A DNA stretch of 64,000 nucleotides, from the NCBI GenBank assembly GCA_028707125.1, contig JAQTUX010000002.1, positions 336,355 to 400,354 of the forward strand, given 5' to 3'. The notes beneath the pieces are model-generated. The model saw nothing but the letters and a program-made list of their open reading frames with translations, was not told the origin of the DNA and did not search any database. Below, piece by piece: positions 2,835 to 61,100 of the stretch. The number at the start of each line of letters is the position of its first letter. Within the stretch, counting starts at the first letter, position 1. Source of the DNA: Candidatus Omnitrophota bacterium (GTDB taxonomy: Bacteria > Omnitrophota > Gorgyraeia > Gygaellales > JAQTUX01). Made by a program: the position numbers and the translations under genes.

Positions 2835-3713
2835 TCAAACCTTCCTCGCTTTGGAGAAACGGTACTGCACGAATGAAACAGCGACTAAGATCGCGCCGAA
2901 CGTGATGCCCTGCGCGCAGGCATAGCCGAAACGGGATGAGGCGCGCATTGAATTCAGTATCCTCAAGACCGGGACCGAGGTGTAACCGGCGAACTCCCCT
3001 CCCACTAAACCTATGATCAAGGCAAAGGCCTGCATCGTGCCTAAAATAGTAAGGATGGAGACCAATACGGCCACCGGTATCATAAGCGGCAGTGTGATGC
3101 TCTTAAACGACTCCCAGGCGCCTGCCCCGTCCACGCGCGCGGCCTCATAAAGCCGGCGCGGTATGGTCTGAAGTCCCGCTAAGAATATCAGAAAACCCCA
3201 GCCAAATCCCTTCCAGCAATGCACAATGGCAACGGTAGTCAGGGCGGTCTTCGGGTCTGAAAGCCAGTTGTTCACAAGCTGCGTCAGCCCCGCGCCTGTC
3301 AGGGCGCGGTTAACAAGGTTTGCCCCGCCTACATCATTAATGATGAAGCGCCAGACCATGCCTACGACGATCTCGGAGAGGACGGGCGGGATAAAGAATA
3401 TCAACCTGTAAAAATTCTTCATCCTGATCTCGCGGTCACAGGCCCATGCCAGTAAAAATGCCAGCGCGTTTTGAAAGGTAAGCGCGATCAGGGTGATATA
3501 GCCGGCGTTACGCATTGACTGCCACCAGGCCTTATCCGCCATGATCTCCTTGAAATTGCCCAGGCCGACGAAAACCTTGGCAGGCAGTATCCCGTCCCAC
3601 TCATACATCCCTAAATGAAAAACCCATAAAAACGGAACGACATAGAAGACCGCGAAGATAGCCGCCGCCGGTAATACGAACGCGTAATTTTCCAGTATAT
3701 CTTTGGCCTTCAC
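2835..3713 (-). CDS. Carbohydrate ABC transporter permease (MalF/UgpA-like)
   Basis: 292-aa ORF with multiple TM segments and the EAA loop motif YEAARVDGAGAWESFKSITLPLMIPV. Confidence 0.9.
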   Translation of the reverse strand: MKAKDILENYAFVLPAAAIFAVFYVVPFLWVFHLGMYEWDGILPAKVFVGLGNFKEIMADKAWWQSMRNAGYITLIALTFQNALAFLLAWACDREIRMKNFYRLIFFIPPVLSEIVVGMVWRFIINDVGGANLVNRALTGAGLTQLVNNWLSDPKTALTTVAIVHCWKGFGWGFLIFLAGLQTIPRRLYEAARVDGAGAWESFKSITLPLMIPVAVLVSILTILGTMQAFALIIGLVGGEFAGYTSVPVLRILNSMRASSRFGYACAQGITFGAILVAVSFVQYRFSKARKV

Positions 3714-3714
3714 T

Positions 3715-5223: not shown

Positions 5224-5247
5224 TAACTGCTCCTTTCTTATTGGCGC

Positions 5248-6570: not shown

Positions 6571-6611
6571 CCTCTTCTGACCCTTGATTTACGGCTGGAA
6601 ATCAGACCTCA

Positions 6612-6640
6612 ATTTTATTATCTATTGGCAGCTGTGTCAA
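6612..6640 (-). promoter_or_regulatory. Sigma70-like promoter for the solute-binding-protein/transporter operon: -35 TTGACA (6640..6635), 17-nt spacer, -10 TAAAAT (6617..6612)
   Basis: The reverse complement of 6605-6645 reads cTTGACAcagctgccaatagataaTAAAATtgagg, consensus -35 and near-consensus -10 with 17-nt spacing, about 40 nt upstream of the SBP start. Confidence 0.5.
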
Positions 6641-6651
6641 GTTAAAATACC

Positions 6652-7014
6652 TTAATTAATCCCCGCCCACCAGTTCCTGGCCAGCTCATCCCTGTGGTTT
6701 TCCCGCACATAGAGGAATATCTTCTCCCTGTCAAGGTCGCCTAACTTGGTAAACCTCAGGCCCCGCTGCTTGTTGAAGACCTCATCCCTGCCCCAGACGA
6801 CCTTTGCCTCGGCCACAATGGGTTCAAGATAAGGGAATGCAACGATCATTTCAACATCGCTGCCCACAGGCAGATCATCCCGGCAGGCGATACGGCAGCC
6901 GCCGAAACTCAAGTCCTCGAGGCGGCATTGCCTGCGCTCATCTGACCCGGGCAGGCAAAATTGCGCTTCCTTCGCCTCGAGCTCCCACCTCGCGCTCCTT
7001 CTTCTTTCCCGCAT
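6652..7014 (-). CDS. PilZ-domain protein (c-di-GMP receptor-like)
   Basis: 120-aa ORF. The N-terminal RRxxxR motif (MRERRRSARW) and the downstream DLSFGGC (D/NxSxxG) match the two c-di-GMP-binding motifs of PilZ domains at the expected spacing. Confidence 0.65.
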   Translation of the reverse strand: MRERRRSARWELEAKEAQFCLPGSDERRQCRLEDLSFGGCRIACRDDLPVGSDVEMIVAFPYLEPIVAEAKVVWGRDEVFNKQRGLRFTKLGDLDREKIFLYVRENHRDELARNWWAGIN

Positions 7015-7069
7015 ACGGCATCATCTCCTTTTGGCCCTGCCTGAATACAGGCAGTGAATATTCTTGTTA

Positions 7070-7098
7070 ATTATATATCTTTAGTAACCGCCTCTCAA
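7070..7098 (-). promoter_or_regulatory. Sigma70-like promoter for the PilZ gene: -35 TTGAGA (7098..7093), 17-nt spacer, -10 TATAAT (7075..7070)
   Basis: Reverse complement: cgcTTGAGAggcggttactaaagataTATAATtaacaag. It lies immediately downstream of the giant-gene stop codon (7117) and upstream of a hairpin (7034-7056) and an AGGAG SD. Confidence 0.45.
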
Positions 7099-7116
7099 GC
7101 GAAACTTATTATCCGT

Positions 7117-10100
7117 TCAGTGCCGTCGTTCCTCTTCACTGTCCGCCCTGTTAACTGAAATCCGCAATATCCTTGCTACGGTATGCGCGCAATCCCTGCT
7201 TAACCCGAAATCAAAGAAGCAATCTGCAAGGCCGCGGTAGCCGAACATATCTCCTGGAATATAGCCAAACCCTGCGTTTAAGGCCTGCAGCACCTTCATC
7301 ATGCGCTGCATATTATCCAACTCAGCATACGGCTTTTTCTCTTCCCCGCTTAACGCGACACCGGATTCATTCAGGATCTCCAGGGCAATGGTAATGGCGC
7401 CCCTGTTGATCTCGGGAGCGTATCCGTTTTTGTATCTGCCTGCGATGCCGGCTAACCAATGTATTTTATTCTGCAGGTTTTCGGAGAGGGCGCTGATATC
7501 CGGCAGGCCCATACGCCCGCCGCGACGGGCATTGATAACCCCGTTGATCAACTTAAGGATATTTCTCTCTCTTTCTTCATCCCGGGCCTCCGCCTCTTTC
7601 TCTACAGCCTCACAGCCGCCGTCTCTAAGGATATCATCAAACCTGAAAAACGGCTCATAAAACATTTCATCCTGTTTCTTGCCGGCCGCGACAACCAACA
7701 GCACAACCGGAGTTAATACCGCCGACAAAATGAAAAATCCGGCTATGGTCCATTTTAACATATCCCACCAGCCCCACCCTCTTCCGAAGGCACCTGCTGC
7801 CTGCTCTGCCCCCAGGCAAATATCCGGAAACCCTAAGGCAAGAACGATCAACGCGAGCGCGCATGCAGCATATTCTAAGGATATTCTATTTTTTGCAGAT
7901 ATCTCATTCAAGCTCTCATAAAAATATCTAATTGAGGCGCCCCGGGGATCGGCTATAACTGCCGCCATTCCCATGTCCGCCCCGTCTGCCGTTAAATCTG
8001 CATAATCCCCTATGCCAATGGAAGCGAATTTCTCTGCCACCGCCGCCTTAAATCTATCGGCCGCGCCCTTCAATCCCTGTTGATCACCTCCGGATTTGTA
8101 ACCCGCGGCTAAGAAGTATAACTTGTAGTTACCCGGGGACAATTGGATCCTGTCCGCTATCTGCCTGAAATGCTCATGGAATTTAACATTTAAAGAATTG
8201 AAATGCCCTACTCCGCATTCGTTATTTTCTGTATCCATTAAAATGAATACTACGCAGTCAAAGGCGCCGAATGTCATCAGCGATTCATCCGACCATTTAA
8301 AATCATCCATGCCTACAGAATACCGCCCATCTCTGTATGTACCGCAAAACTCAAGCCATTGCGCCTCAGTCAATTCATTATCTATTATAATCTCTGCCTG
8401 CCGCTCATCCCCGCCCACCTCCCGGGTCGTGTCAAGGGGGCTGCTGGAGGCCTGCAACTTTTCAGCTAAGCGAGAAAAGCGGTCTATTCTGCAGCTTCTC
8501 GAATCGGCATTGCTGAACATGCTATCGATAAATCCATGCCAGTAAGAATCTATGCTTTTCTGGTCTTCTAAAGAATCTAAGAAGAGCGACTGGTTAGAAT
8601 CGGGAAATCTTATCGGCTGGGGCAGAGAAGATACTGGCTTTAATATGTTTATTAAATCCTCATTGCCATCCGACAACCCTTCTTTCGCGTGTACAATACG
8701 CTCCCAATCAATAACTACAAGCGGCACTCCCTGAAGGGCTGCCTTCAGAGCCGCGTCTACCGTCCCGCTCTCCCGCTTGCACTCAATAACTACGACAATA
8801 TCGCATAACGCGGTAGTGACGGCGTTTCTTGCAAGGGCAAGATCTATATCGGGAAGACAACGTCTCTGTTCCACCCAAACTATCGCACCGTTATTGATTA
8901 TTTGCTGTCTCGATGCTGGTTTCTTAAACACGCCTATCCCGCTTCCACTCCAGGGTTTGACGGCTATTGTGGTGCCTCCATTATCAATAGCTGCCTCATG
9001 GGCCGCTTCATCTATTCCGTAGGCACCGCCGGATACTACTGCAGCAGTAATACCCTTATTGGCCGCGTAACTGAAAGTAGAGCGCACCAATATGTCGGAC
9101 AAAAGACGACCGTCTGGGCTAGACTTAGTTGCGCTACCGATAATCCCTATGGTTAAATCCTGATTCAATACCGCCTTTACATCCCTGGATGAACTAACCA
9201 TTAAATGTGCCGGTGGAAAAACCTCGTCTATTTCGTAGGGGGTAGCGGGGATTCTTTTTAGTTTTCTGGCACGTATAACTTCAGGCCATGGATTCCGCAT
9301 AGCCGTTAAACATTCTGCTACTTCCATTAATCTCTCGACATCCATAAAACTAATTTCCCCAACCGGGCTGCTGGAGGCCGGTCCCGACATGGCTTTCATG
9401 GCTTCCCCCAAATATCGTATAGTCCTACGCGGATCAAACCTATCGCTGCCGTCAGGATCAACTCTTAAGCCGCTTTCGGCATCTATATTAAAAGGCAGTA
9501 CGGCATTTAAACCTGCCCTTATTTCCCGGATTTTTCTATCTACATTTGTATCATCTAACCCCCCTGCGACGCCTATGCTTAAACGCGGATACGCCTCTCT
9601 GATGGAATTGATCAATCCCGACGCGATCCCGCTATCTAATTCCTTGCCTGTGCCTAAACTTATGTCCAATAAGATCGCGTCTATATGCCCCTGATAAGCC
9701 TTCAGGTAACTAACTGCTTCTACTTTTACATTCGCGAATCGGTCTAATTGGACCTGAAGTATAACCTTGACTCCGATCTTTCTTATTGCATCCATCTGCG
9801 CGGCATCAATATCATCGCCAAATAAATTTATTTGAACCGCATCAGGCAATTGGTTTGATTCGTTTAATTGCCTGATAATATCGGTTAACATATTATCGCT
9901 TTTGGAGTGCTTGGAATAATGAACACAGCTCAGCAGGCCGGATCGCCTTAGTTTTTTCAAAATATTCTTCATTTCTTCAATATCAGTTATATAACGATTA
10001 GGATGCTTGCCAGACATGCTTTTTCCATCATCTACTATAAGAAGCCCTGCCATGGCTGAAACACCTTCAGTAGTTGCCTTGTGCAGTCCCTTCACTTTCG

Positions 10101-13100
10101 CGACTAAACTACAAACATCTGCTATTGAAGCTATGCCCGCGACACCAATATAGCATTTGAATGATCCCTCAAAGATGGCGAATTTATTTATATCCCCACC
10201 CCCCTCCTGCTTCGTGGCAAGCGGGCTGCTGGAAGCGACCGAACAAAGAGCATCTATTATTGCCTCAATGTTTTGGATGGGGGTGCGCGCAGGAGTATCG
10301 CAGGCAATGCTAAACACCATTTGACCTGCCTCTATATATTGCGCGTACCGCGCTGAATTCCCTGCTATCAATTCCCGTATTTGCGCGCAAGTCAAATCGG
10401 GTAAACGCGCCGCGGGGATTGAACCCATCACAACTGCCTTTTCCGCCAAATACCTTAGATGCTCCGCGAAACCTATTACCTCATCCACATGAAAAGCGTC
10501 CACTTCCAGTGCTGCCAGCGCCTGCATAAATTTATTTTGATACAAACTGGAATTACCGCAGTTGTGGTAAACCGCTCTCTTCTTTAACTCCTTTATCCTG
10601 GCGGCCGATCTTCCTGCTAAGGCAAAAATAAATTTCCTGCCCCTCGGCGGGCCAAGAAGCTCAAAAACCGGCCCGGAATAAGGATCAAGAATGATCATCA
10701 CATCGGCACCGGCGGCAATTGCCTGCTCGGCATATCGGATGCTTACCGCAGTGCAATAGTCAAATAACACCCCCACCGTCTCTGTTTGATATACTACCTC
10801 CGTGGCCATATCGTTTAACTTCTGCAGTACGCAAGCAAGGGTAGCCGGACCCATTACATAGGCAATGCGCGGAACATCCGGCAGCATCTGCCTAAAATGC
10901 CTTAGCGCATCAAGATACACCTTAGCGCGCCCATCTTTCTCAAAATCAGGAACTAGCAGCTTGGACACGTTTTCTGCAGTGAAGGTAAATGAATCATCAA
11001 GAAGATAATTATCTGCACCTTGTTTGATAGTACCTTCCCGCTCATCATAAACTGCCTTGATCTCTGGCGCCCCAAGGTGCCTGTTGACAAGCGAAACAGT
11101 CTCGGGAAATAAAACTAGATCCATTGCCGTAAGCACGTACGGCAGACGGAAACGCCTGTGCAAATATTCCATTAACTGAATCTGCGCATCTGCCTGATTC
11201 GTAGCCTGCCGGACAGTATAGCTGGCCGCCCCCTCCCGCGCCATATATCTCAATCCCGCCAAGCCCAGGGTCAGAAACGGCTGCCGTGTTTGCGCCCAGA
11301 CACGCAAGATATCATCCTCCGCCCCGCCCCCCGCCTGCGACGGGGCAAGGGGACTGCTGGAGGACTGCTGCAAACCGGTCAAGTTACTATATGATAATTT
11401 CCCACCATTTGGCCGAGACTCGTTCACCGATGAGGAATCAGAGGCAGGAGGGTTATTCCCGGCCGCTTCAAACCGCGCCTTTAACTCATTTGTTTCATCC
11501 CGGCTCAAAGGAAGATAGATGATCCGGGAACCTATCTGGATTCCCGGGGTTCCGGGGACGGTTCTCTCGCCTGTATCCCTTTCCGGCGCAGAGGATTGCG
11601 AGGATTCTGTTATATCCGCGCTACTGGAGGCCCGTCCCTCTCCGGCCATAGCCGCGGGACAGGATTGATTAAGAAATTCCTCTGCCTCCCCTATCCTCTT
11701 TCTTCCAATTAAGATTGCTAAAATGTTTTGGAGCTCAAAATTTGTCAGCTCTCTCTTCCTGGCCACGGAATGTACCCGCTGACCACGGATCCATTCTTCA
11801 TAATGAAATCCATCAAGAGTCCCCCCAAATCTGGGAACAAGACCAGCTCCATGGAGCCGCCGGATAGCATCCACCTGTTTTGATCCGGACATCCCGATCT
11901 GTTTGACAGCCATGGATTCGCGGCCGCTTCTCCCTGCACCGTGCCTCTTCAGAATTAACTCTAATCGGAAAACGGCTTTTTCGGTTGCCGTTATGAACCT
12001 AGCTTTTGCTGCGCCTATGTCTCTATGACGCGCGGCAAGCCCTGCCCTTTCTGCAATCTCATCATTGGCCCAGGTAAACTCTGCCTTTACCGCCCCGATC
12101 CGCTTTTCTACGCAGGGATAGTCTTTTTCGCTTTCTTCTGCCGCGGAAGAGGAACTTGGCACTTCCGGCTCCAGAAGGTATTGCGGCCCCTCTGCTGCCT
12201 GCCAAAATCTGTCCCATGAGACCTCATCCTGCGCGGCAGCAAGCGATCTGAATGCCTCACAAAGAACTTGTAAATCTTTGATTTTTTCGGTGGAAATTCC
12301 CAACTCCTCCCCCAAGAAAGCTTCCAAATTACCTGGGCTGACGGCTTTGCATGCGGCATCCCTTCTTAGCCGATTCATCCGGTAGATCAGACGCTGCTTT
12401 CTTCCCGAGATTGAAAAGTTACGGCAAATATAATCTTCGATGAATCTTCTTATCGCATTTTTGGCTCCGTTGACAAATACGGCACCGTTAATGCCGCCGC
12501 ATCTTGAATCCCACTTCCGAACAATATCTATAAGCCAAACCAATACTTCATTATACAGATCATCATATTCCACACCTAAACTGTACATATGACGGGAATA
12601 GTTATAAATCACGGTTTCGACCTGCCTTATTTTCATTGCCTCCCGAGCCAATTGGATCATCGGCTCGGTGGCTTCTTGAGGAATAATCCGCGCCATTTCG
12701 CCGGCATTTGCCTTTTCCCATTTGTATTCCCTGCCTTCGGCATTGATATAGACGTAGAAAACTTTCGGCCTGCCTTTATCTAACTCTATCTTTATCGGCG
12801 CTGCCTCGCTGTTGGGATAAAAATAATTGCTTTCACCCAGCCTTAAGCCGCCCCATCCATTCATGGTGATGCCGCCCTCGATAATGCCGGTGAATACATT
12901 CCGGGTTACCCATTTGTCTATATTGCTCAACTGCCATCCGCGCGTTTCAACCGGAGGAAAAATATTGACGATCTTGCCTTTATTATCCCTTGCCAGAACA
13001 TAAGGATATTCGTGAGGGCTCTTTTTGGCGGGGTCGTTTACTGTAACCCCGATACAGATATCGCCTTCATATTTCGGGATGACAGTTACGCCGCCTTCCA

Positions 13101-16100
13101 GGCAAAGCTCCAGACACCTGCCGTGTTCACCGCCGGAAGCCAAAATCCGCTCTATTTTTATGCCCGAATATTCATAAGGGATGAATCTCACGGGTTTTCT
13201 TTTCCTGCCTTTATTCGTGTGGCTGAAGAATGCGAAATAGGCGGATCTTAAACCGGTAATCACTATTCTATCTTCGGGTTTGGATCTTTTCAGCTGGCTA
13301 ACGAGATTCTGCTTTCTCGTTGAAAAAATTAATTCGCCGTTAAGCCAAAACAGGACAAACGGTTCCCAATCGCCCCACTTGCCGTTACCGCGCTTTTCTC
13401 TGATGGCGGTAATTATGCCGTTATCGGAATATCTATACCTGAACGCAAGTCTGGGGCGCCCGCGGCTTTCAGGGAAGAGGCCCCTTATAATACGATTGCC
13501 GCATACTAATAACGCGATCCTCCTCTGGGCCTCACTAAAACGATGCCTCTGCTTATTAAATATTACGAAACCGTTGTATCCTGTTTTAGAAATAATGATC
13601 AATTTTCTTCCTGTATCAACGCTGAACTCAGCCGGAGGTATGCCTCCCAGGTAAGAACGAACCGGCGTAAGCGTCTCGGGGTCGCATATAATACGATAAC
13701 TATACGTGCGGGGATTTCTGCCTTCTTTGTATATTGTCGCGGAAGTAATAATTCCCAGGGCCTTCTTACTGCTGCGCTTGAAAACTATACACTCTTGTTC
13801 AGAAAATATGAGCCGTATGCATAAGCCGTCTCTTATCTCTGCCAAAGCCATGCGTTTTTTAAATTCTATGGGGACAGATAACCGAGCATCCTCCAAAAGC
13901 CGGGCTGCGCTGCTCAAGTTTACATAGCATGGCATATAGACAGGCCCTTTGCCGCTCTCTGTTCTTAACTGTCTCTTGAAGTTAAAAGACAACGCTTGGA
14001 AAGTAAGAAGTATTTCGCCCTTCTCATTAAAGGCGCAGCGCTGGCTACGAGGGCCCCACTCTCGCATAATCTTTAAATATTCCGCTATTTTCGCCGCCCC
14101 GCCCCCCGCCTGCGACGGGGCAGGCGCGCTGCTGGAAGCGCCGCCCTGTGGCTGGCCTTCGGTGTAACAATCGCCGTCGGGGCTGCCGAAAACCATTATC
14201 TTACCTTTTTCTTCGCCTAACCTTGCGATAATCCCTCCTTCTTCCAATAGCCGATGGATCTGCTCTCTTTTGCCGTTTTCAATCCCCGAAATCACTTCCG
14301 CCGGATTATCCGCGCTGCGATAATACTCAATAGTATAATTTTTGTTTAAAACCAGAGATACGCCCTGGGCATCTTCGCCGTTTCCCGGGACGAGGATATT
14401 CTTATAGTCGCTGCTGTTTCTAAAGAATGCCTCGGGCAACCAACTGCCGTACAATTCAGCCAGCATCTTCTCAACGTACTCAATATGGTAGATGCCGATG
14501 TTGCGGATGACCTTTGCTGTCTGCGCATCCCTTATTTTCCGCTCATAAAACACCCTGGACACAAAATACAGCAGAAGGTGATTGAGTGCGTGGGAATCTT
14601 TTGCCAGTTCATCAATTAAATCAGGGGCATAGTTAAAGTCATCGCACATATGCAGGTATCTGAGGATATAATAGTGCAAACTATAATTCTGGCTGTAATG
14701 CCTGAAGAAACAGGGCAGCAGGCCATCCCTGATAAAATTCCGTAAGGTAAGCTCTTTTCCGTTTAAATACTGCAACAGCGCGGATAAAGCCAGTTCTGAA
14801 GACTCGCCCTTCTGAAGATCAAATATTTTCAGCAGGCGTTCATATTTTCCTTTTTGCTCCAAGGAGCTAATTAGTTGCCTTACTTCGCTCGATGCATCTT
14901 CAGAAGCATAAAGGAGGTTGCATAAATTGATAAGTTCGGCGTCAAAAACTAACGCCGATTCTCTCTCCGCTTCGCTTAAACTATCATATTTTCCCTGCAT
15001 AGATAATCCCAATAATAAATCTATGATTTTCTGCTTGTTATGCGCGCGCGCTGCGTCCAAAAGCGCACAACCGTCTTTCTTAAACATATGGACGATTCGC
15101 TCTTTCAAGACAAGTATATCTTCCGTTCCTGATGCCGCATTTTGCATAAGTCCAAACAGTCGCTCTTCCTGCGACACGAGCGACTCCTGCGCTCCCGCGT
15201 CCTGCGGGGCAGCCGCGCTGCTGGAGACGACTGAAGACGGCATACCGCCATCCCGGCACATTCCACCTACTAGGGAAGACGACTCTCCCGGACTGCCGGG
15301 GGTGACTTGTGATCTCGCCGGTGAAGTAGATCTAACTGCGGTAGTACCGGCAGCAAATCTCAACCAATCCTCCACGCTGCTTTCCATCATGGGGCCAACC
15401 CGAGGGTTAACAGCCAAAACCTCATCTTTAAACCGAAAACACAACTTGTACAACCCTCCGCTTAAAAGCGCGTTGGCGAGCCCCTTGTGCTCAATGCCTT
15501 TAAGACGATACAGCCGCAGAAACCCGTTTACCATGTTCATAAAAAGCGAATTATTGCCGTATCTGAATATATAATCTCCGTTATCCCTGTATTCTTCACT
15601 ATAGAATTCGGCAATATGCGAAAGTAACCGGCAAACTATCAGTTCTGATAAAGGAAACAATAAACAACAGGCCAATTTTATCCCTGCCCCCTCTAGGGCC
15701 TGCGGATGGCAATGCTCTTGCCCTGCCATCTGTTGTGCCAGCGTTACGCGTATATCTTCCGGAAACATATCTATATTCATATGGGGCGGATAATATATAC
15801 GCTTCGTATCAGATTCATCCGCACTTAAAATTAAGATGCGGTGCAGCTGCCGCATTTCATCTGCGATTTTATGAGAAGCAACGAACCCCCTACGGCAATT
15901 ATCTATGATCTGTTTCACTAACAAGAGGAATCTCTGCCGGACCGCCTCAGAATTGCGCTTTAAATTTAGCTGATTACGGCTTTTGGGCTCGGGCTCTGCT
16001 TGTGCGTCATACACAAGTTCATCCCACGGCACTTCTGCCGCATATTCAAAATCAACCAACCCTGTATACGCTATCTGACACGAGCTTCCTCCTGTCTCTG

Positions 16101-19100
16101 TTATGGGGAAGCCAATTTCCGGATTACCGATGGACAACGACCCCCCCATGGGGCTGATAGGTTTAGATAGCCACCATTTTTCGGAATCGGGAAACCCTCC
16201 TCTTCCAGAGGATTCAAAAGCCGTACCGGCGTCAACATATCTATTCCGACACACTTCCCCTAACGGCTTACCGCGGTAGTATCTGGATGGACCGCTACGC
16301 CTTTCCCCACCCACGCTGCTGGAGGCCTTAGGGCGCCTTCTTACAACCGCGCCTCCGTTCAACTCCGGTATGCCCGCGGCGACCTTACCAAGAACAGTAA
16401 AGAACTGTTCAACCTGCTCCTTAAAATAAGACAAATAAACCAAAACGGATTCGGGTTCTCTTATTTCCATAGAAACACACTTTGAGACAATCCTTTTCCT
16501 GAAAACGCTGATGAGCTCTAACTGGCTATCTTTCAAAGACAATATACCGGACAATATCTCAATAGGGCTGATCTCGCCCGATTTCTCAAGCAATAAATCT
16601 CCTTCCATCTGGCCTTCCGTATAAAATCTGTAGAGAAAATCATCCAATAGCGGCCTTATCTCTGAAGTGTCTATATGTAACAAACCTATTTTAAAATAAA
16701 ACGCTGTCAATAGATCCTTCAGCCAGTCATTATAAAAGCGGGTTATGTCACCGATCAATGATCTAAGGGATATCTCTCTATCCTGCCCTTCAGCCGGGCG
16801 AAAACTCTTTATATTATTTAACCATATGCATCCATTGCCACCCTGCCCTTTTATCGCGCCCGGGCTGCTGGCAGAGGCAATATCATTGATCCGCGCCAAA
16901 AGCTCCTTCCATCTATAATTTAATTCTTCCCTTGTTATCTTTATAATCGTTATCCCCAATATATCGGCTCGGGTCCCGGAACTTAAAATGTCGTTTATGA
17001 AGCCGCCGAAACAATCATCAAGCATAATTATGATTCTTATCGCTGCCTGATCCTGATCCGATAATACGATTTCCCTATTCCCAAGCAACCTTGATGATAG
17101 TAAATTGGAATCGCCTGTCCTCTTGCCCATAAGTGGGGAGCCCTTGCCGGGCCCCTCCTCTATCCTTAATAAAGACGCTGCGCAGCTGACAACCTGCCAG
17201 CGCGCGTCGCTTTCAACTAACTTTATTGCCAGGCGGCTCTTGCCGCTGCCGAAATCCCCCAGAAGCTTTACCCCAATACCGCCATTAAACAACAAAAGTT
17301 CTCCATTAACCCAATGCCATCCAACATTAGCCGCCCCGCCCCCCGCCTGCGGCGAGGCAGGCGCGCTGCTGGAGGCGCCTTGGAAAATAATTGACCCTGG
17401 CCTGCTCCATCCATCTTGCGCCCAAGCAGGGACGCATATACAAAAATCGCTAAATTCCCCCTGACAGGTAATTACGGCGCCTCCTTTAATACCTGACAAC
17501 ATCATATCGGCATCGCCCAATAAAAAGGCATCCCCCACATATTCCTGTAAAGCCATCCTGACCTGATAGAGCTGATTTACATCTATGGCGGTAAACGTCT
17601 TATTCATAAAGACTGCCGCCGACCCTCTTAAAGACGCCAATATACCATCGTCGCTCGCGTCACCCTGCCTGACAGAGAAACTACTCTGCGTCAATTGCCG
17701 ATGTTTATTCAAAGTATCAATGATACCGGCCGCTCTTTTCTCATACCCGGCCGCCTTTTCTTTAAAACCTTCGGTCAATAGATGGTCTCCTAGCGCGAAT
17801 GGCGATTGGCCGGAAAGCCGCTTTTGCGCTTCACTGACAAACGCTGGCGTCATCTCGATGCCATCTAACACGATATGCCACCGCTCCACATCTCCCCATC
17901 CCTTATTATTCTCAAATGCCTGGATTATTGCCGCGAGAATAGTGGCCATTTCTTCTCCAGTCGCGGGGCCGATGATTGACAAACGTATATAACTTTGGGC
18001 CATGCCCTGTGCCACTATTAACGGCAGAACCCGGCACTGAAAATATTCGATTTGCCGCCGATGCCTGCCAAGATACGAGAAACGGGCATCCGCGTGTACG
18101 GCGCCAAACCATTCCACATTCCAAGGATGCGAATTCCCCCATAAAGGTCGTTGGAACACGGGTGCATCCTTACCTGGTTCCCCGCCCCCCTCCTGGGTCG
18201 GGGCAGGCCCCGCCTTCGGCGGGACAAGCGGGCTGCTGGAGGCATGCTGCGAGCCGACCGGGTTGCTAGATGAGAATTCTTCACTATATGACTGCAACTC
18301 GTTTACCGGCGAGGAGCCAGAGGCAGAAGGACCGTACCCGGCTACTTCAAGCCGCGCCCTATCAAGGATTTCTATTATGCCTAATTTTTGCAATTCGCTT
18401 CCTGTCTCTTCTGGATCCTTAGCGTGTTGAAGGATAGCGGAAATCTGCCTATTTACAGCCGGGATCATAACTGTCTCAATCGGGATTAAACCGCTTCTAT
18501 AATCCTGTATGGACTGATGGATTACGCTATAGATCTTATCCGTTAATCTTAAGCCATATTGATACTTGAGCCTTAATATCCTTGTCAGCGTACTGAGGGT
18601 AAGGTTCCTTCCATTCCCCGCCATACTAACCTCGCCTTTTAAAAGAGCGGTCAAGCCCTCTGTGTGCCCATAAATATTACCCTCTGCGTCCAAGGCCATC
18701 ATCAGCAAGGTTGGGCCTGATTCCGCGAAGAGTTCTCTGGTCCGCGGGTCTACTACAATCCTGCGAAGTAAAACCTCTGTTCCGCTGTTCGTGATTCCCT
18801 GCATCGGACCTGCGTATTGAATTTCAACTCCGTTAAATTCGGCCTTTCTAGTCGCTCTGGCAGGACATAATAAATCATCCGCGCTGACCCCGAGGGCTTG
18901 TGAAATCCTGTCCAACACCCCCATGGCGTATCTGTGAATTCTATAATTATCTTGAGCCTCGTCACGGCTAAGCGCATTCCTCTCACTCTCATTGAAATCC
19001 ATCATGATGCTGACATCTATATCACCCAGTATCTCACCGAAGAAAATATCCCTCACCCCTCCCCCAACAACAACAATGTCCCTATCTAAGCCTTGGTCCT

Positions 19101-52100: not shown

Positions 52101-55100
52101 CGTTATAAGCGGCCAGGCCGTAATTATCCGGGTGGCTCCTGCCGTAATAGTCATCGCAGGCGTCTTTGACCGCGCGCATAAACGACTCCCAGTTCGGCCA
52201 TATCTCGTTATCGCCCCAAGGCGTATTCTCATAATCAACCACGTATCCGGTGCCTCTTAATATCCTCTTTAACCCATCCCGCGCCATAGCCCTCAGGCGC
52301 TCAAACAGCACCCCGTCCAAGACCGCGATGGTCGGGGCGCCGTTCTGCTGAGAATTGGTTATGCTCGTCGGGCCGGCCTCTTTGCCTTTCTTTGAGATCA
52401 TCATGCCGAAATTGGCCCCCTGCTGAATGATCCAGGACGTCACCACATTGTGATCGTCAATGAAGAAAAGGTGGTAGCGCATGCGCGGGTCTATCGCGAG
52501 CAGCTGCTCGAACTTACGCTGCAGATTATAGCCCCACTCGTCGAACCTCCTGCCGCCGATAAGAAATACCGCCCCCCATTCTACTATAAGGTCCCTGTTG
52601 GCCGCGTCAAACATCCGGTCAAGGAACCAATCAAGGCATTTATACGGGACCATCCTGCGTACAGCCGCGATAAATGCCATATCGTAAATCCTGACGCCAA
52701 GGGCCCTGAGTTCCTCCTTTGTTATAAAGACCTTTCCGAACGCGCCGTCAAACAACTGGTCGATCAGGTATTCCTTCTGCTCCTGCTTTATCCGCAGTAA
52801 CTCCTTGATAAATTTATCCTTGTCTTCGGGCTTATGGTCCAGCGCCTCCAACAAAGCATCGGGTATGGCTACCTTAAGCCGTTTCATGTTGTTCTTAACC
52901 AGCTCCTGTATGCCTTCGCCCTGCCAGCGAGTTATGTCCGAGCCCTCGCTGTTGCCGAAGAGGTCGTCCTCAACCACCTTGCCGCTGAATTCAGCGAATA
53001 TCTCGTTGCGCAGGATCTCCGTATGGAGGGAAGAACACCCTGTGATAAAATCGCTCACCCTGCCGGTGATCCTCACCAAGTCTATGTATCCTGTTTTGTC
53101 GTGCCCTTTGGCCTTGACCATGGTATCCCTGAATTCTTCGGCTATCTTTAACACATCGAACATGTAGTCATTATAATTACGCATGCCGTCAAGGACGATG
53201 GTGTGATTGTAGTGATGCACGACTATATTGCTGAAGAACGGGTCTGTGTTATAGCCGTCGTTGACAACGCGGGGTATGGCCAGCGTAGTATTGGTTTCGC
53301 TGGTTGAGAAAATAATCCTCTTGCCTACAGGCGTTACCTTAGCGGTATCTATTTCAACCAGCGGACCGAAAGCGGTAAATCCAAGCGGCCTCCAGGACAC
53401 ATAATCTTTATCGCTCTCCGGCTCCCCTTTCCTTCCTGATTGTTCCTTGATGAAACGGAGCAGGACCCTGCGATATAACAATGTCTGCAGGGCGCGCATA
53501 TCATCGTCATCGGGATAGGCCTCTTCAAACACCTCCGGGCAATACATCCAGTATTCGTTCAGCTCGGATTCCGGATTGCAATACACCTCAACATCCACGC
53601 TGTTTTTACCGTTATAAGGCCTGGGCAATTCGATGCCGCCATATCTGGTTATCAACCTGAGACCGCCCCTTACGACCTCAATAAGCTGCGGGTCCACGAT
53701 ATCCTCTTTGAACCCCTTGATCTTTTTGGAGTAGAATATGCCCATAACGTTCAACTGTTTGCGCGCCGCGAACGGCCCGCCGTTATAACGCGAGAGCACC
53801 CTGTACCAGCCCCTTACCAGGTCGGGCTTGAAGCTGCCCAGCCCTCCGGACATAATAAGCTTGGCGATTATGCCCGCGCAACGCAGCGCCTTGCGCATAA
53901 ATCCCCTGGTGTGCTTTAATGTTATAATTAACGCCCGCAGAAACTTTATTGAAAACTCATATTCCATCTGCAGCACCCAGATATCGCTGTCTCCGATATT
54001 CTTTATCGCGTTCTGTAACTCATAATCCTTGAATGCCCTTGACCAGGCCGTATCAACAGCGTACCCCTTCATTTCATCCTGCCTGGCCTGGCCGCGGATA
54101 AGCAGGGAAACCCGGTGCTTTAATTCGGGATCATCCTCAAGTATCCTGATGAGTTTCCGGGCCCCTCGCAGGTTCGACTTGGCCTTGCCATAAACTTCAT
54201 TTAATCTCTCCAGCGTAAGCGCGAATCTACCCGCGCCCTCTTGCGGCAAGGTAAATATCTTTCCGGGTTGGCGCCCGGATGCCTCCGCGGAAGATGAAAC
54301 ATGATCCTCATCAAACAAAAGGCCTGTTGCGGCTGAAATAAATGGTTCCCCACCAGCCACGGAGAGGTTAACCACTGCCGCAACAGGCCATGAAGTTACA
54401 TATAGCCCGGCTGATCCAAACGATGATACCGGGCTGAAACCAAACCGCTGACCGGTTATTGACTCTATCGCGCTCTTAAACATCCGGAAGCTGCTCATCC
54501 CCGTGCCATCAATCCTGTCATTGATGACGAAGCGGTCAATCTTATCTGGATTATTCAGATATGCGTCCATGGCCGCGATGTTTTCTACCATCCGTATGGC
54601 AGCATTATCCTTGCCGGAGGTCATTTTACGAAGTATGCCGATATGCCGCACTCTTTCTTCCCGCCAATGTTTTAACGAGAACGGCAACATCAGTATGCTG
54701 GCTATATCCGCTATCTCTCTCTCCAGCATATTGAGCGTTTCAAGTGTCGTAGTATCAAATAACAACCGCTTTCCGCTGTTCTGCTGCCCAGCGAAGGCCT
54801 CTTTCTCCGCGGCATACTGCCTGCCGTGCCTTTCCCTGACCAGCATCAGTGCCCCGGATTGTTTTAAGGCATCAAATTCTTCCGCGCTGACCAGATGTTT
54901 ATGAGTGTCTCCGGACTTCTCATCTTGATGCGCCTGGCGGGTAGATATCTGGATGACCATGGCGAAATTATCGGGATGCGCTGCTATCAACCTGCGGCAG
55001 AAGGCCGTCTTTCCTACTCCCGAAGGCCCGATCACGGCTATTACCTTAGATGCGGCGGCGGATGAAGAGGCGCTGTTGTTCATCTCTACTTCTTCGCCTA

Positions 55101-58100
55101 TATAGTGAAGGCCGTATTTAATCTCTTCTTCGCTTAATTGGCTAAGGGGCCTGCTCAGCCCATATCTGCTATCGCCTTCTTTGCCGGAGCAAACTATATG
55201 CAGATCACAATAAAGCTTTTGTTGCTGGACGGAATATTCCAAGAACTGCATCCGGACATAAACACCATCTTTGCTATATCCCTTCCTTTCCATCACCCCT
55301 AACGCCTGTCCAAGATCAAGGCCGGTCTTACCTCTGATAACCCGTATCAGCACTCCTTTAAAATCGCCTGCCAATCCTTCAAGGGTCAAATCCTCTTTCC
55401 TGCCCTGGCCGGCCTGGAAAATGGCCTTAAGCAGAGGATGCGCGATCAAGGCGGCGTGGTTAAGATTCTCTAAAAACTCTGTCAAATCTACAAATATGCC
55501 TTTATTTCTATCAAATACGAATATTTTATTTATCCATTCCCGGGGCACATCCTGCCTGGTCTCAAATACGAGATTATCCATGCCGTTCCATTCGGGGTTA
55601 TTATTAATATTAACCTGCGCCACAACGGACAAGAAATCATCCTTGGGGTACTTGTGGAACTCACACGGCCAGAAAGCATAGTTGATCGCTTCAGCCGGCG
55701 AGACGTCAAACTCCATCAGCCATCTGGTGGCCTTCCAGATCTCAAGTCCATTAGCCGCGATCTCTTTCAGGTCACCAAGATGAAGACGCAGCCCCCTATA
55801 GGTAAATCTTTCCGGGTTATATTCCATACCGGATTTCTCAGCGATCTCACCACCGCGGTAATCACGCGGCACGCCCTTTTCATCAGCAAAGAAATAAGGC
55901 GCAAACAGCGTGTCCGGCTCGGAAGACACCCTCTCTTCAACCGATGGCGCACGGATCGCCTGAACGCTTCCTGCGGCACGGTAGGCGTTGTTTCTTTCCT
56001 TAGTATTCCACCTTCGGAATTGGACGATATAAATACCATTTTTTACCGCGAACTCTAAATTAATGGGGTATTTCAAACGGCTATACATAGCAGCCGCGAT
56101 ATGTATCAAACCGCGGACATCCTTTTCCGCGAGAGAAACGTCTGATCCGTTGATCCCAGTTCTGTCGGCTTCAAAAAAGTCCAATATATTATTAAAGAAA
56201 GAGTATTCCCAGCAATCCGCGTCCCTGTCTTCCTGCGTGCCGCCGGCCAGCCCCCTGGCGGCATTAATAAATACATTGCGGGAATCAACCAGTATAACGC
56301 CGGACGCTTCCGGGTCTATCTGGGCTTGCAAGGCGATCGCCATAGGATACTTATTCGTAGCGTCCACCGCGAAGTTGCTTGCGATGACTCCCAGCACCGC
56401 CTGAACCAGCCCATCAAAGTTTGATATGTTTGGAATGCTCCTGTAGGTTCCCGGCTGAGTGCCTGATATGTCTTCAACTTGATTTGAAGAACGCGCGATT
56501 GTAACATTACTGAAAAACTCCGCGTACTCTAACCACAAAGGCCTTAGGCGCTCCGCGACTAATTTTACTATCCTGTCTTGATACAGTAATCGTTCAATTG
56601 CCCTATACCTTTCTTCGTTACTTTCATTCTCTATGATTATTGACCCGATCTCATCGCCAAGGACCGCCATAATATCTTCATAAAGCCGGGTGGTAACAGC
56701 TATGGTGGGGACTAAGAAGAAATCCCAGAATATCCTGCGATGAAAATCATCTAATGCCGCCAGGGTGCTGGTCTTGCCTCCGATCAACTCCGGAAGCCAT
56801 ATCCCGCCTGCGAAGAAATCGATCCAGTATTGATGAGAGTTTTCTTCTTTTACGTTTTTCTGTTGCCTGTCAGATTCAGCTGCCAGATCCTTAAAGATGC
56901 CTCTTAGCTCCCGGTCATCCCTGCAAAGATGGAGCTTGATACAGTAGTCCATCTCCATCAACAAACCCCTCGCGGCAAGAAAATCATACGCGCCCCAGGT
57001 CTTCTTCGCCAATTTCATCCTGGCATCCTTAAGGACATCGTTTAATACCCTGTCCAACGCGCTGTTTCTCCCGTCGTTATATATATTGAATTTATCGATT
57101 ATTTCCCTGTCCGGATCCTGCCCCATTAACCCCGCTAAAGCGCCATATAACGAAAACTGCCTCTTAACCTCGCCATTGTGATGGAGCAGCTCCGGAAAAT
57201 TATTGATCCTGCTAAGAGCGTCTATATTCCTGTCCAGTAAATCGGTTAAATCCCTCGCCAGATCATAGAACACCGGCGCCAACAAAAATTCCAGGTCTTT
57301 TACCTTCTTGCCTTTAAGGCCGGCAAAAATAGCAAAAACCTCGGTATCATCGCCTTCTCGCAGGGCTTTATATAGCGAAAGGAATTTATCCCCTTGATTT
57401 GAAACCAGATATACCTCGCCCTTGTCTCCGTCTATCATGACCTTGTCTCGGCTATCCAACACAAAGGACCTCTTCTGAGGACATGCCTTTAACAGATAAG
57501 GGCGCCAGTTCACGGGCACATAAGAATATGTTAAGCTGTCAATCCTTGCGATCCGGCCGCTCGCGTCGGCAATAAATGGATTCGGGGACTCCTTACTGTT
57601 CAACACTTCTACGCGCGGTATCCCCAATACCCCCAGGGAAAGATTGATATGGCTGGCGATATTACCCCGGGTTTCTATTTGAATAATGCCCTTTACTCGA
57701 TCGCGATGTCTGGTTATCCAGGACAGCATCTTCTCATCAACATCATGGACCAATAAGACCACATCGCCCTTTTTGCCGAATTCCTTTACTGCGGGCCTGT
57801 CGTTCCCCGGGAGGATCTGCACCAATCTGCCGCTGGCAAAGCCGTCTGTAAGGCCCCAGCCCTGCAGTATGCGATGTATAGACACGGGTAACTCCGCCGG
57901 CCTTGTCTTTCGCGCTTCCCTAATGTCAATATCGCTCTGGGATGCCTTGTCCGGCCAGATATCTTTAACATGATGCCCTGCCTCGATTATCCTTTGTTTC
58001 AGATCAGAGGCGCTTACTGCCGAACTGCTTAAAGAAACCCCCAGTTCATATCTGTCCCTCAAGCGATTATAGAACCCTATTATCCTATACGGCTCGTCAA

Positions 58101-61100
58101 ACAGGTCTATTTCTATTATATAAAGCTCCCATCTGCCATACTTTCCGATATGGGAAAGGTTAGAATACGACCGCTTGTCTATGGCGTTAAGCAGATCACC
58201 CATTTCTCGCGCGGAATCCATATCAGAGTCAAGACACTGGTCAATGTAGTCAAAAATATCAAAACCCGGGTTATTCGCCAATTTCCCTTCTTTCGTAACA
58301 ACCTGGCGCGCCGCGATGGCTTGTAATACAGGATTTACAAAATAACGATTGAAAACCGCCTGATTCACCATAACCGGCATATATTCGGGATTTTCGTTGC
58401 CTTCTCCTAATGGCAGGTTGGGTATTGTGCCCAGGCCCGGCCCTAATCCGGTCAAAATGGCGTTCAACCATTCAATTGTAAAATATCTTATCGGCTCAAA
58501 GACCCCGCTTTGCCACATCTTCTGCCGCATATTGACCTGGCCCAATACGGCCCTATATATCATGTCGTTCGGGCTTATCCCCAGCTTCAACGCGGTTGAT
58601 AGGTCGCTGTGCTTAGGAATATCATACCAGCCCCCTGAGGCGTACTTGCCCCATTCAGTATCCAGCTCAACCAAGTCTTGTCCGTAGCATAAACCGGAAA
58701 CAAGATGCGTAAACCATAAAGATACCGACGAAGGATACATCCTGGCCCTTTGTTTCATCCGCGCGCCTAATTCTCCCAGAATGCATGTGCGCGGAATATT
58801 GCCCAGGTCTTCTCCGCCATCTGTTACCCCGCCGCCGCCGATAATCATACCTTCATAATTACCCCCGCTATAGTGCGGGCTGATGTTAAACTCTATATAA
58901 ACAGTGTGGGCGGCGCCTCGGTCCTTATAGTCCACACTCACGATATTCCTGTGCACGTATATATTCACAAAATCGCTCAGCCGGACAGAAACGGTATCCT
59001 TGCCTATCCCTAACGGCAGGTTCCTCAGGAGCGCCCTTAATACGGGAGAAATCTTGAACTGTTCAGGGTCAAACCCCAGATCGCAGACAGCGCAGGTCTC
59101 TTCATCCCTGATCTCCAGATTAAGGGTATCCAATAGCAGCCGCCTCACCTTTATCTCCACCTTGTTGCTTTTAGCCTTTAAATAGGCGCTATGCAGGAAA
59201 TTAAGCATCTGATTAAAATTGGACACCTCTCCAAGTTCCGGCTCGTTATTCCGCCAGCAAACCGGCCCCTGCAATAAGGCCTCCTTTCCGGATTTATCGG
59301 CCTGGAGAAACGCGCGCTCAAGCTGCCGCAGCTTTTCCTTAAACTGCCCAGCCGTATATTGAGAATTATCCGCAAGGCGCTCTAAAGAATCGGCGAGAAG
59401 CGCAAAATCAGAAAACAAGGCCTCTGGATCCGCCTCTGCTAAGGCGCCGCCTATTACTGCCTTCAACTTTTTATGCGTATCCTCAAAGCTTTCAATGCAG
59501 GGCCTCATGTCCTCTTCTATCTTAACGAAACTCAAATAATCCATCCTGAAATAAGGCCCCTCTAAAACCATTTTTAGAGAATAGCGGTATCCCTTCTCTT
59601 CAAAAGTCCGTTCTTGAGATAAACCGTCAAAAAGGCCCCCGAGCTCAACCGGGACCTCCAGGACAAAGTAATCGCGGACATCCTCCGGGAAACTTCGCGG
59701 GCGCGGAGGCGGCAGGTCTATTAAAGAGGCGCTGACCTTTAACATATATATTTTCCTTACATCGATTATTCTTCTTCTTAGTTCTTTCGGGCCGACAGCC
59801 CTTCCGGCTTTATTATAAATAGTGTGTAATTCGCAAAATTGGGTGGCGAAATCAAATTGAATCGCTGAAGAAGAACCGGCCTGTTCCTTATCTTCCCACC
59901 ACACTCCCATCTCTCTTAATTCCGCGTCTGTGTAGGTTGAAGTCACCTCAACGCCTCTTGCCGCCTCATCGGCAGGCATAAGGCGGGGCTCTGTGATAAG
60001 CGGGTCTTCATCCTTAAGGATAGCGGCTACCAGGCCGGTTATAGTGAGCTCCTGGCCTGAAGCGATCTGCTCCCGCGCCTTAAGGATGGCCCCTGATAAC
60101 ACCTTACCTATATTAAGGCCGTAGGTCCTGTCCTGGATATTGGGCGTGAGGCCGCGGATGATGTAGCCGGGGATATTCGGGCGTACGCCTGAGATAATGG
60201 CGTGTTTGACGTCTTCGCTTACCTTCTCTTCGCCAAATGCATCTTTGTCTCTAAATCCATTGGCTTTGAGTCCTTCTCTGAAGGCTGCCAGGGCCTGGTT
60301 TAGTTCAGGGTCAAATCGCGCCAACTCCGGAAGGTATTTGAGGGCGGCAACCACGTAGTTGGAGAAACCGGTAAGCTTGGGGTTGCCGTGGATATCGTAT
60401 TCCCTGACGGCATAGAAGGATGCCCTGGATACAGGGTCAAGCTCCAACAACTTGTAGAACAAGCTGTCCTTTGACTCTTGATGGCCCTTGCCTGTATCCT
60501 TAAAGTTGTAGCCCTCGCTCACATTTACATTAACGTAGAGACGCATCAGGCGCGTACCCACGGGCCGCAGGCAGGCATCATAGACGATCTCCTCTTCGGC
60601 CATGCGCCTGAGCGCTTCAATAAAGAAATATTTCAGATAAGAGGTCCTTTCGGGAATAAGGTTGATGATGCTGCCGCCTATCTGCTTAAGCATCAATTCT
60701 CTTCCGGGGATAGCCCTGTCGCGCTCGCTTATACGGGGGTCGCCGGTACCGATAACCACCCAGCCCCTGTTCCTGCCCATTTCCTCAAAGACAGACGGCT
60801 TGGTATGCCCATAGGCGCTGACACAGGTAGCTAAGAAGTCTCCTCTTTGATGCTCTATGGCGCTATCCGCGCCCAGCGGCTTGGCAAAGGTATCATTGTC
60901 AACGGTCTTAAGCGCCGCGAATACCGGAACAGGGATATTCCTCTCCTTAAGGAGATTGGCAAACTTTGCTGCCTGCCGGGCGTGGTCATCGCCGCCTATA
61001 AGCACCACTGCCGCGAAATCCCTGACGTTGGCAACGGCGTTCTCCTGGTTCTTATCGTCTAATTTCGCGCGGGAAGAACGGCTGATAATGGAAGGAAGAT

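Follow-up and report, generated by a model that had tools for sequence, protein, structure and literature searches.

The window described here is the whole 64-kb stretch of DNA that was analysed (64,000 nt; contig JAQTUX010000002.1 of a Candidatus Omnitrophota bacterium, positions 336,355 to 400,354). It is dominated by one minus-strand open reading frame (ORF), the giant ORF, and the element in question is a serine-triplet motif that recurs along the encoded protein. The giant ORF occupies positions 7117-63987 and has 18,956 codons counted from the first ATG. No stop codon is present in its frame between that ATG and the window end (63988-64000), and because the frame is still open at base 64000 the gene start may lie upstream of the window, so that a length of >18,956 codons is possible. 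Modules identified with Pfam comprise phosphofructokinase (PFK), PPDK_N, guanylate kinase, a glycogen-phosphorylase-like module, a complete class-A PBP, nucleotidyltransferase, GNAT, two methyltransferase-like modules, URO-D-like, PRAI-like and DprA/SLOG, together with HEAT and TPR arrays. Many distinct enzyme families are tiled along the ORF, none dominating, with HEAT/TPR scaffolding in addition, and approximately 26 hydrophobic segments are spread over the whole protein. By self-BLAST the protein is non-repetitive except for the HEAT/TPR arrays and a few paralogous pairs, and its modules are mostly unrelated to one another, as had been stated in the first-pass annotation, an earlier reading of this DNA from its letters. 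The closest genomic relative of the URO-D-like module is an Omnitrophota metagenome-assembled genome (MAG) locus, at 31% identity. The window contains no marker gene, and from its own content a placement in Omnitrophota draws on module types, gene size and this one match.

On its module content the giant ORF is a predicted multi-enzyme protein of the type reported in Omnitrophota ('Archaeovorin'-type, bioRxiv 10.1101/2023.11.21.568195; class 1 'multi-enzyme metabolic clusters', bioRxiv 10.64898/2026.06.07.730766). Like these giants it has more than 10,000 aa, with PFK, PPDK_N, phosphorylase, GNAT, methyltransferase and SLOG-like modules tiled on one chain, HEAT/TPR scaffolding and scattered transmembrane segments, and it is sequence-unique, without close homologues. 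Dozens of unrelated, complete enzymes are carried on one chain, and the same three-serine signature is found at most joints.

Serine triplets and the linker cassette

The sequence GCTGCTGGA occurs 17 times on the plus strand, compared with 0.67 occurrences expected for both strands together, and is the reverse complement of TCC AGC AGC, which encodes Ser-Ser-Ser in the coding (minus) strand of the giant ORF. Runs of at least three Ser number 43 in the giant protein and ~5.3 in shuffles. The recurrent gctgctgga-type motif reported in the first-pass annotation is borne out by these counts; it is present in the range given there (8411-59880), although the coding strand is minus and the motif extends to 63669. 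Among the 28 coordinates listed for it, 27 are within ~25 nt of a Ser run of at least three; the remaining one, 38165, corresponds to a paralogous site that reads A-S-R-S. Only the longer runs are in excess, with SS doublets not enriched (65 vs 74.5 expected) and triplets of other residues near expectation, and the commonest 4-mers of the protein are ASSS, SSSA and SSSP. Both halves of the gene are enriched in Ser runs (16 vs 2.5 expected and 27 vs 2.9), and in the C-terminal half the median spacing from run to run is 302 aa. In 37 of the 43 cases the run is followed directly by A, P or V.

The first-pass annotation described every site as SSS followed by Ala/Pro-rich residues, Q, E/A and GGG. 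A position matrix built from clear copies finds this full linker at only 12-13 sites, all between aa 9129 and aa 18514, and the ~30 core-only sites have just [G/A/K]-[A/G]-SSS-[A/P/V] in common. In the C-terminal part the linker takes the form of a GC-rich cassette of 48-53 nt, GGC GCC TCC AGC AGC GCG CCT GCC CCG CCG CAG GMG GGG GGC GGG G. A repeat finder run blind returned the linker as the largest dispersed family (D2, 12 copies x 53 nt, 62-100% identical to the reference), and three additional families from the same search are truncated linker variants. The earlier description of about a dozen almost identical copies is not upheld, as the 49-nt consensus quoted for them is matched within 3 mismatches at 2 sites only. 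In the linker alignment, similarity starts ~6 nt before TCC and stops after GGGGCGG, with sharp edges and unrelated flanks. Pairwise identity between linkers has a mean of 66% and a best value of 92%, compared with 24-26% (equal to random) for the 51-nt flanks on each side (9 copies, one of them mis-registered), and the claim that the flanking domains are unrelated agrees with this. The 11-nt core has the same strand and reading frame in 22 of 22 copies and is absent from bases 1-7116. An SSSPL subtype is found mostly at 8.4-11.4 kb and also at 18.2, 33.6 and 36.6 kb, an SSSAPA subtype is found at 14-26 kb, and decayed copies form a graded series. Junction positions are given in Table 1.

Codon-position, synonymous/non-synonymous and Mantel tests were applied to 8 full copies. 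At the three Ser codons 14 differences are synonymous and 0 are non-synonymous, compared with 21 synonymous and 175 non-synonymous differences in the 12-codon tail. Tail differences are evenly spread over codon positions 1/2/3 (84/111/85), and ~31% of random single-base changes to the tail consensus would be synonymous. Copies are less alike the further apart they lie in the gene (Mantel r = -0.50, p about 0.009). The Ser triplet is the sole part that is invariant among the young cassette copies, and it is written in two codon dialects: from aa 10437 on, 21 of 27 runs have the TCC-AGC-AGC pattern, and N-terminal of aa 10117 the runs are mostly TCN-TCN-TCN, with no single synonymous steps connecting the two classes. 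From the lack of non-synonymous changes, the second codon dialect and the presence of a similar motif in a related lineage (see below), the Ser triplet appears to be held by selection on the protein. The 45-nt GC-rich tail behaves like a young DNA copy that drifts free of amino-acid constraint, and the similarity of the tails would then reflect shared DNA ancestry. The functional constraint proposed earlier, as opposed to neutral duplication, is thus retained for the Ser triplet and not for the tail, with its 21/175 ratio, distance decay and decayed copies.

When 185,579 species genomes were scanned for a 28-nt cassette pattern, there were 0 matches. With a looser, gapped version of the linker pattern, metagenome contigs yielded 35 single matches, all in genomes of 57-76% GC, which were rejected as chance; 32 of the 35 are in open frames of <250 codons and none is accompanied by further cassettes or a giant ORF. 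Internal translation starts were also rejected, as no suitably spaced in-frame start codon follows the QEGGG (AGGAGG-like) copies (by inspection only).

Table 1 Giant ORF and serine-triplet junctions in the 64-kb window, in order of window position
Feature	Residue (aa)	Coordinates	Strand	Remarks
Giant ORF, predicted multi-enzyme protein with ~26 hydrophobic segments		7117..63987	(-)	ORF list, Pfam, hydrophobicity
Full junction cassette QASSSPLDTTREVGGDE	18514	8404..8454	(-)	D2 copy, 64%
Short variant PASSSPV(GE), TCC AGC AGC	18205	9361..9381	(-)	D11; upstream of DprA/SLOG module
Full junction cassette VASSSPLATKQEGGGDI	17919	10189..10239	(-)	Directly after last residue of URO-D-like module
Full junction cassette QQSSSSPLAPSQAGGGAE	17542	11317..11370	(-)	Upstream of URO-D-like module
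Short variant RASSSAD	17454	11614..11634	(-)	D14
Full junction cassette GASSSAPAPSQAGGGAA	16618	14092..14142	(-)	D2 reference copy
Decayed full cassette VVSSSAAAPQDAGAQES	16255	15181..15231	(-)	Matrix, alignment, repeat search
Short variant KASSSVG(GE)	15889	16309..16329	(-)	D11
Full junction cassette GASSSAPASPQAGGGAA	15539	17329..17379	(-)	92% identical to 14092-14142 copy
Full cassette, Pro/Gly half tandemly duplicated HASSSPLVPPKAGPAPTQEGGGEPGK	15250	18169..18246	(-)	Alignment, repeat search
Variant GASGSPAEE (TCC GGC AGC)	14678	19939..19962	(-)	D10/D11
Short variant GGSSSPG(EGQ)	14401	20773..20793	(-)	D10 reference
Full junction cassette GASSSAPASPQAEGGEI	14184	21394..21444	(-)	Matrix, repeat search
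Full junction cassette SASSSAPAPPQEGDGEK	13479	23509..23559	(-)	Matrix, repeat search
Variant GASGSAGPD	13395	23788..23811	(-)	
Diverged full cassette GVSSSSVDPTQAGGGAVR	13153	24484..24537	(-)	Matrix, alignment, repeat search
Short variant KMSSSPC	13125	24601..24621	(-)	~21 aa past end of methyltransferase-like module
Short variant QASSSAV	12752	25720..25740	(-)	Between GNAT and methyltransferase-like modules
Full junction cassette GASSSAPAPPQEGSGSD	12580	26206..26256	(-)	Upstream of GNAT module
Short variant AASSSAG(EGQ)	12270	27166..27186	(-)	D10, 90%
Short variant QTSSSPV	11976	28048..28068	(-)	Followed by hydrophobic segment
Short variant GTSSSPG	11574	29254..29274	(-)	
Short variant GASSSSVS	10437	32662..32685	(-)	Most N-terminal of contiguous TCC-AGC-AGC block
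Decayed full cassette, TCN Ser codons IVSSSSPLGAEQGGRAMD	10116	33595..33648	(-)	Matrix, alignment
Decayed cassette SESSSPLNQPPGGEPSD	9129	36559..36609	(-)	Matrix, alignment
Paralogous junction GKKASRSAG, SSS replaced by SRS	8612	38137..38160	(-)	
N-half junction (K)GASSSAG, TCN codons	7761	40693..40713	(-)	Start of ~150-nt tract, 96-98% identical, in common with 38026-38163
N-half junction AKSSSPE	7285	42121..42141	(-)	~29 aa past paralogous methyltransferase-like module; Ser codons unlike counterpart at 24601-24621
N-half junction GASSSSAA	6418	44719..44742	(-)	With 44917-44940, brackets 66-aa remnant ('ghost') module
N-half junction KGSSSSGL, TCN codons	6352	44917..44940	(-)	Resembles K-x-SSS-S-G type of related lineage
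N-half junction HVSSSAE	3231	54283..54303	(-)	
N-half junction SASSSAA (TCT TCA TCC)	2974	55054..55074	(-)	7 aa upstream of guanylate-kinase P-loop module
N-half junction AGSSSAI	1372	59860..59880	(-)	
N-half junction GRSSSSVS, TCN codons	888	61309..61332	(-)	11 aa upstream of phosphofructokinase module
First junction KASSSSVD (TCC AGC AGC AGC)	107	63652..63675	(-)	Isolated site with codons of C-terminal block

Module edges, related loci and recombination

Full HMMER was run with aa 17542-18560 as the query against 1.84 billion representatives. Three consecutive inter-junction intervals are each matched over their whole length by stand-alone proteins, and the gaps between the matches coincide exactly with the four junctions. 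Query residues 25-374 match residues 3-361 of a 366-aa stand-alone protein, residues 403-660 match residues 2-258 of ~260-aa proteins, and residues 669-963 match DprA/SLOG-like proteins. In the pairwise alignment with the 366-aa homologue, its residue 2 aligns 8 aa past the upstream GGGA and its last residue aligns with the Ser triplet. Elsewhere, the distance from Ser run to module start is 11 aa for PFK (run at aa 888) and 7 aa for guanylate kinase (run at aa 2974), and GNAT occupies the 172-aa interval aa 12580-12751. The Ser runs are at the edges of complete, protein-sized modules wherever these edges could be mapped, and the earlier statement that new domains start right after the linker holds where it is testable (PFK, guanylate kinase, GNAT and the three C-terminal intervals). 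From the end-to-end matches and the run spacing, the joint would occupy the place of the stop codon, spacer and start codon in an operon, and each module is, as predicted from these alignments, a complete, formerly independent protein. The paralogous methyltransferase-like modules (35% identity) both have SSSP 21-29 aa past the domain, with different codons.

A few multi-module proteins with similar motifs at module edges were found among distant matches. One of these, P0054, has two relatives, P0151 and P0152, and the metagenome contigs concerned (L086/L087 and L088; 37-40% GC) carry rows of 0.9-2.8-kaa multi-enzyme genes around a PilZ gene. Downstream of the giant ORF the window has genes for PilZ, a sugar-binding ABC protein (SBP), an MFS transporter and two ABC permeases. 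The shared neighbourhood is at 5248-7014 (-) in the window, with PilZ at 5411-5749 in L088 and 6230-6577 in L086, and SBP is present in the window and in L088. The downstream SBP of L088 (27340-28289) is 55% identical to that of the window, which is without an entry in the contig index searched. From the same PilZ/SBP surroundings and this identity, the loci are taken as orthologous neighbourhoods in a lower-GC relative. In place of the single 18,956-codon gene of the window, the relative has the row of 0.9-2.8-kaa genes, with intergenic gaps of mostly 3-40 nt. Every large multi-enzyme gene of the related loci, and the small PilZ gene, ends in ...AA-stop (LIAA, LSAA, RQAA, DSAA etc.; gene ends at L086 6120, 6577, 9987, 14743 and 17512, and at L088 1057, 5280, 5749, 9985, 18289, 23699 and 25115), an ending that the window genes do not have.

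The pattern K-[T/S/A]?-S-S-S-[A/S]?-G occurs 10 times in 8,106 aa of L086 and 5 times in 5,850 aa of L088, compared with 0.03 and 0.02 in shuffles. The Lys, Ser and Gly codons of K-x-SSS-[A/S]-G vary synonymously, and K and G are near-invariant. Most large L086/L088 proteins with a visible N-terminus begin with a hydrophobic leader, followed 55-80 aa later by the motif and again by the motif before internal modules; one copy directly abuts the N-terminus of an aldo-keto reductase. Homology among P0054, P0151 and P0152 breaks at the motifs, and the modules in between differ. The collinear part of P0151 and P0152 (68%) extends to residue 1825/1832, 5 residues before the KSASAG of P0152, with different modules beyond, and the C-terminal module common to P0054 and P0151 begins at the last motif in both. 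The N-half window junctions KGSSSSG and KGASSSAG resemble the type of the related lineage. The Ser-triplet junction is read here as an older protein-level signal common to both lineages, and the GC-rich cassette as a derived form that probably expanded recently in the gene of the window.

Within the giant gene, two paralogous segments have 50-60% DNA identity, which rises abruptly to 96-98% over a tract of ~150 nt (~40585-40716 and ~38026-38163) and then falls to random; this tract starts at the SSS/SRS junction and spans a transmembrane segment. The tract has a third copy, at 83%, at 54310-54403. It is one of several short tracts, apart from the linker, in which regions of the gene that are diverged or unrelated elsewhere reach 88-98% identity. 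Another is a remnant module: a 66-aa piece at aa 6352-6417 (44786-44916), with two junctions around it, corresponds to 22 residues from the start and 21 from the end of the module spanning aa 3864-3997; its ends are 97% and 88% identical in nucleotides to 52031-52095 and 52330-52395, and the middle 78 aa are missing. The high-identity tracts and the remnant module are apparent footprints of gene conversion and deletion, and the cassette pattern (one frame, sharp edges, distance decay) fits intragenic recombination or gene conversion. The role in recombination, gene conversion or module shuffling put forward in the first-pass annotation thereby gains indirect support from the homology breakpoints and high-identity tracts.

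Several other features of the giant ORF were recorded. A type-IV-pilin-like N-terminal methylation motif, KDAG/FSLIELLVAVAIILVVATFA, lies in mid-ORF at 37888-37962 (-) (aa 8676-8700; Pfam N_methyl, E = 1.6e-7); the prepilin-type N-methylation site is normally at the protein start and is cut there by prepilin peptidase. The complete class-A PBP module (transglycosylase and transpeptidase) is embedded at ~45138-47027 (-) (aa ~5654-6283), with TPR repeats and hydrophobic segments upstream of it. Two long Pro/Thr-rich linkers of PTHTPT/PTSTST type (~48690-50710 (-), aa 4425-4560 and 5010-5110; repeat families D3, D7 and D8) flank HEAT arrays. The GC skew switches sign across 48-52 kb. A 368-codon ORF antisense to the giant gene (26795-27901 (+)) is taken as a by-product of the long stop-free stretch.

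Interpretation and alternative explanations

The preferred reading, given a probability of roughly 0.55, is that the motif serves as the junction cassette of a multi-enzyme protein whose units are covalently tethered, the cassette being composed of a Ser-triplet core selected at the protein level and a young GC-rich tail repeat spread by recombination. The core, [G/A/K]-[A/G]-S-S-S-[A/P/V/G], would be kept by protein-level selection and would mark the module joints. In the C-terminal 45% of the gene it sits within the 48-53-nt cassette, itself probably a young dispersed DNA repeat. Recombination inside the gene (gene conversion, or unequal exchange during module gain or loss) may have spread this cassette and made its copies partly uniform. 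Each joint would form a short hydrophilic flexible hinge, so that neighbouring enzymes could fold and act independently on one chain, and the invariant Ser triplet may be a recognition point for processing or Ser-directed modification. Since all cassettes are directly repeated and share a frame, an exchange that joins one to another would delete, duplicate or swap whole modules in frame.

A number of points weigh against this reading. The tests on codon differences and distance are based on a small number of copies, and equal variation at all three codon positions would also be expected under nucleotide-level constraint. The triplet at aa 12752 looks inserted relative to its paralogue, and the paralogue at aa 8612 has SRS. 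Flexibility or disorder of the joints is suggested by composition alone, and single-sequence AlphaFold2 on a two-module stretch was uninformative, with a mean pLDDT of 41.7 throughout, modules and joints alike. The pattern used for the related lineage was written post hoc, so that its enrichment ratio is inflated, though not by orders of magnitude, and the junction flanks differ (G-A...A-P in the window, K...A-G in the relative), so the motifs could be convergent. The motif is absent from two other large ORFs, L001 (an Omnitrophota MAG) and L003 (a MAG labelled Planctomycetales), and is therefore not universal among such proteins. No close homologue was found for two 1.4-kaa segments of the giant protein among 5.8 billion proteins.

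The chief rival, considered possible but unlikely, is that the product is a polyprotein, in which a dedicated protease would cut the chain at or next to the Ser triplet or after GGG and release dozens of enzymes. A short near-invariant motif lies exactly at the edges of complete functional units and varies synonymously across lineages, and such edge position and cross-lineage conservation are expected of a recognition site more than of a mere spacer. In L086/L088 the N-terminal leader followed by the motif resembles a pro-region boundary, and in the window the internal prepilin-type G/FSLIELL at aa 8676 would require an upstream cut to work as a pilin. Cleavage has also been posed as a question in the giant-protein literature (West-Roberts et al. 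2023, bioRxiv 10.1101/2023.11.21.568195; bioRxiv 10.64898/2026.06.07.730766), and C39 (double-glycine) and subtilisin domains occur in many Omnitrophota giants (same sources). However, no peptidase domain was detected in the giant ORF (E <= 0.5), in its flanking genes or in the flanking genes of L086/L088. Pfam searches of 20 sub-segments over most of the giant ORF (E <= 0.5), in addition to a whole-ORF scan (E <= 0.01), gave no peptidase beyond the PBP transpeptidase, and a processing protease was not found in cis or in the window neighbourhood, where the neighbours are PilZ, SBP, MFS and ABC permeases. GGG is present at only ~12 of the 43 sites, in a tail that is unconstrained, and to our knowledge the Ser-triplet motif fits no cleavage specificity. 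A broader form of this idea, which is doubtful, makes the motif the processing signal of a cellular polyprotein system in certain Omnitrophota-like bacteria, with the same in-frame junctions as exchange points for swapping enzymes between giant genes; if true, prokaryotes would have an equivalent of exon shuffling, joined to polyprotein expression as in viruses. That the joints are passive flexible tethers, for which any small hydrophilic sequence suffices and in which the triplet persists through descent from a few copied cassettes, is improbable. The linkers do lie between independently folding domains, their composition (S, A, P, G, Q, E) is like that of natural interdomain linkers, the same protein contains long Pro/Thr-rich linkers, the tail drifts freely and DNA-level copying is evident; but the same triplet is encoded by two unrelated codon dialects, SSS has no non-synonymous changes while the tails of the same copies differ by 175, only runs of exactly 3-4 Ser are in excess and SS is not, and the related lineage keeps K and G nearly unchanged even though their codons vary synonymously.

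A hinge in which the triplet is a phosphorylation or O-glycosylation site, regulating or protecting the joints, is also improbable: the idea is wholly inferential, no kinase or glycosyltransferase module was detected in the giant ORF with Pfam, and we know of no sequon that the motif fits, although the Ser cluster is exposed with small residues around it, and kinase-like (Pkinase, APH) and glycosyltransferase modules occur in related multi-enzyme genes. An RNA-level signal was among the roles first proposed. In this explanation, judged very unlikely, a hairpin of Pro codons with Gly codons, or CCUCC...GGAGG pairing, would act in mRNA or DNA (pausing, processing or a recombinase site). The C-rich and G-rich halves of the cassette are able to pair and third codon positions of the tail are no more variable than first and second positions, but fold energies are not better than those of dinucleotide shuffles (z -1.7 to +1.1, not significant), the covariation term of the alignment fold is -0.44 with one compensatory pair, there are 0 Rfam hits at the gathering threshold, and neither the ~30 core-only sites nor the related-lineage junctions have the hairpin. 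The nucleic-acid explanation is weakly refuted, and the hairpin would be a by-product of Pro codons followed by Gly codons. Insertion in frame of a mobile mini-element (REP, MITE or Rickettsia-palindromic-element-like) is hardly credible. Such an element would explain why the repeat is short, dispersed, GC-rich and sharp-edged and could form palindromes, but all 22 core copies have one orientation and phase, though other phases and the reverse strand are stop-free by inspection, and copies are at module edges wherever mapped, with none in the 7 kb outside the gene; the pattern searches of species genomes and metagenome contigs described above also speak against it.

Known systems and significance

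The words 'linker' and 'junction' are absent from the main text of the two reports on Omnitrophota giants (bioRxiv 10.1101/2023.11.21.568195; bioRxiv 10.64898/2026.06.07.730766). A literature search with the junction-motif strings returned nothing relevant. Secreted multidomain glycanases have Ser-rich (polyserine) and Pro/Thr-rich interdomain linkers, which are likewise hydrophilic low-complexity spacers between folding domains, and Pro/Thr linkers are also present in the window protein; unlike in the glycanases, the Ser run is of exactly 3-4 residues with fixed neighbours, ~50 nt of DNA are reused and the motif is kept across lineages. MARTX toxins, phage and conjugative polyvalent proteins and viral polyproteins have a protease in cis or nearby and defined cleavage specificities. 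The giant protein has in common with these processed modular proteins its unrelated modules, short conserved sites and a module content that varies with breakpoints at the sites, whereas no protease was found in the window ORF or its neighbours and cleavage is putative. In cyanobactin precursors (PatE-type), recognition sequences surround hypervariable cassettes of 6-8 residues and the flanks are proven protease/macrocyclase sites; short junctions conserved even at the DNA level, with unrelated cassettes between them, are shared, but in the window whole enzymes of 170-1100 aa take the place of the peptide cassettes. Rickettsia palindromic elements and REP-like repeats are inserted in frame and are similar in being short GC-rich dispersed repeats translated within proteins, in contrast to which the window repeat is found in one orientation, one phase and one gene, at mapped module edges.

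Thousands of giant genes, 10,000 to >100,000 codons long, have by now been recognised in Omnitrophota. The junction signature gives a handle on two questions, namely whether such a product is one chain or is cut, and how the giant genes are assembled, as it marks enzyme edges, appears to be kept across lineages and is also, in the gene of the window, a probable young DNA repeat. If it is merely a lineage-specific linker habit, it would still be a clean case of concerted linker evolution within one gene. In either case the signature is a concrete place at which cutting or reshuffling of giant proteins could be tested, through termini and modifications, co-occurring enzyme families and module variants.

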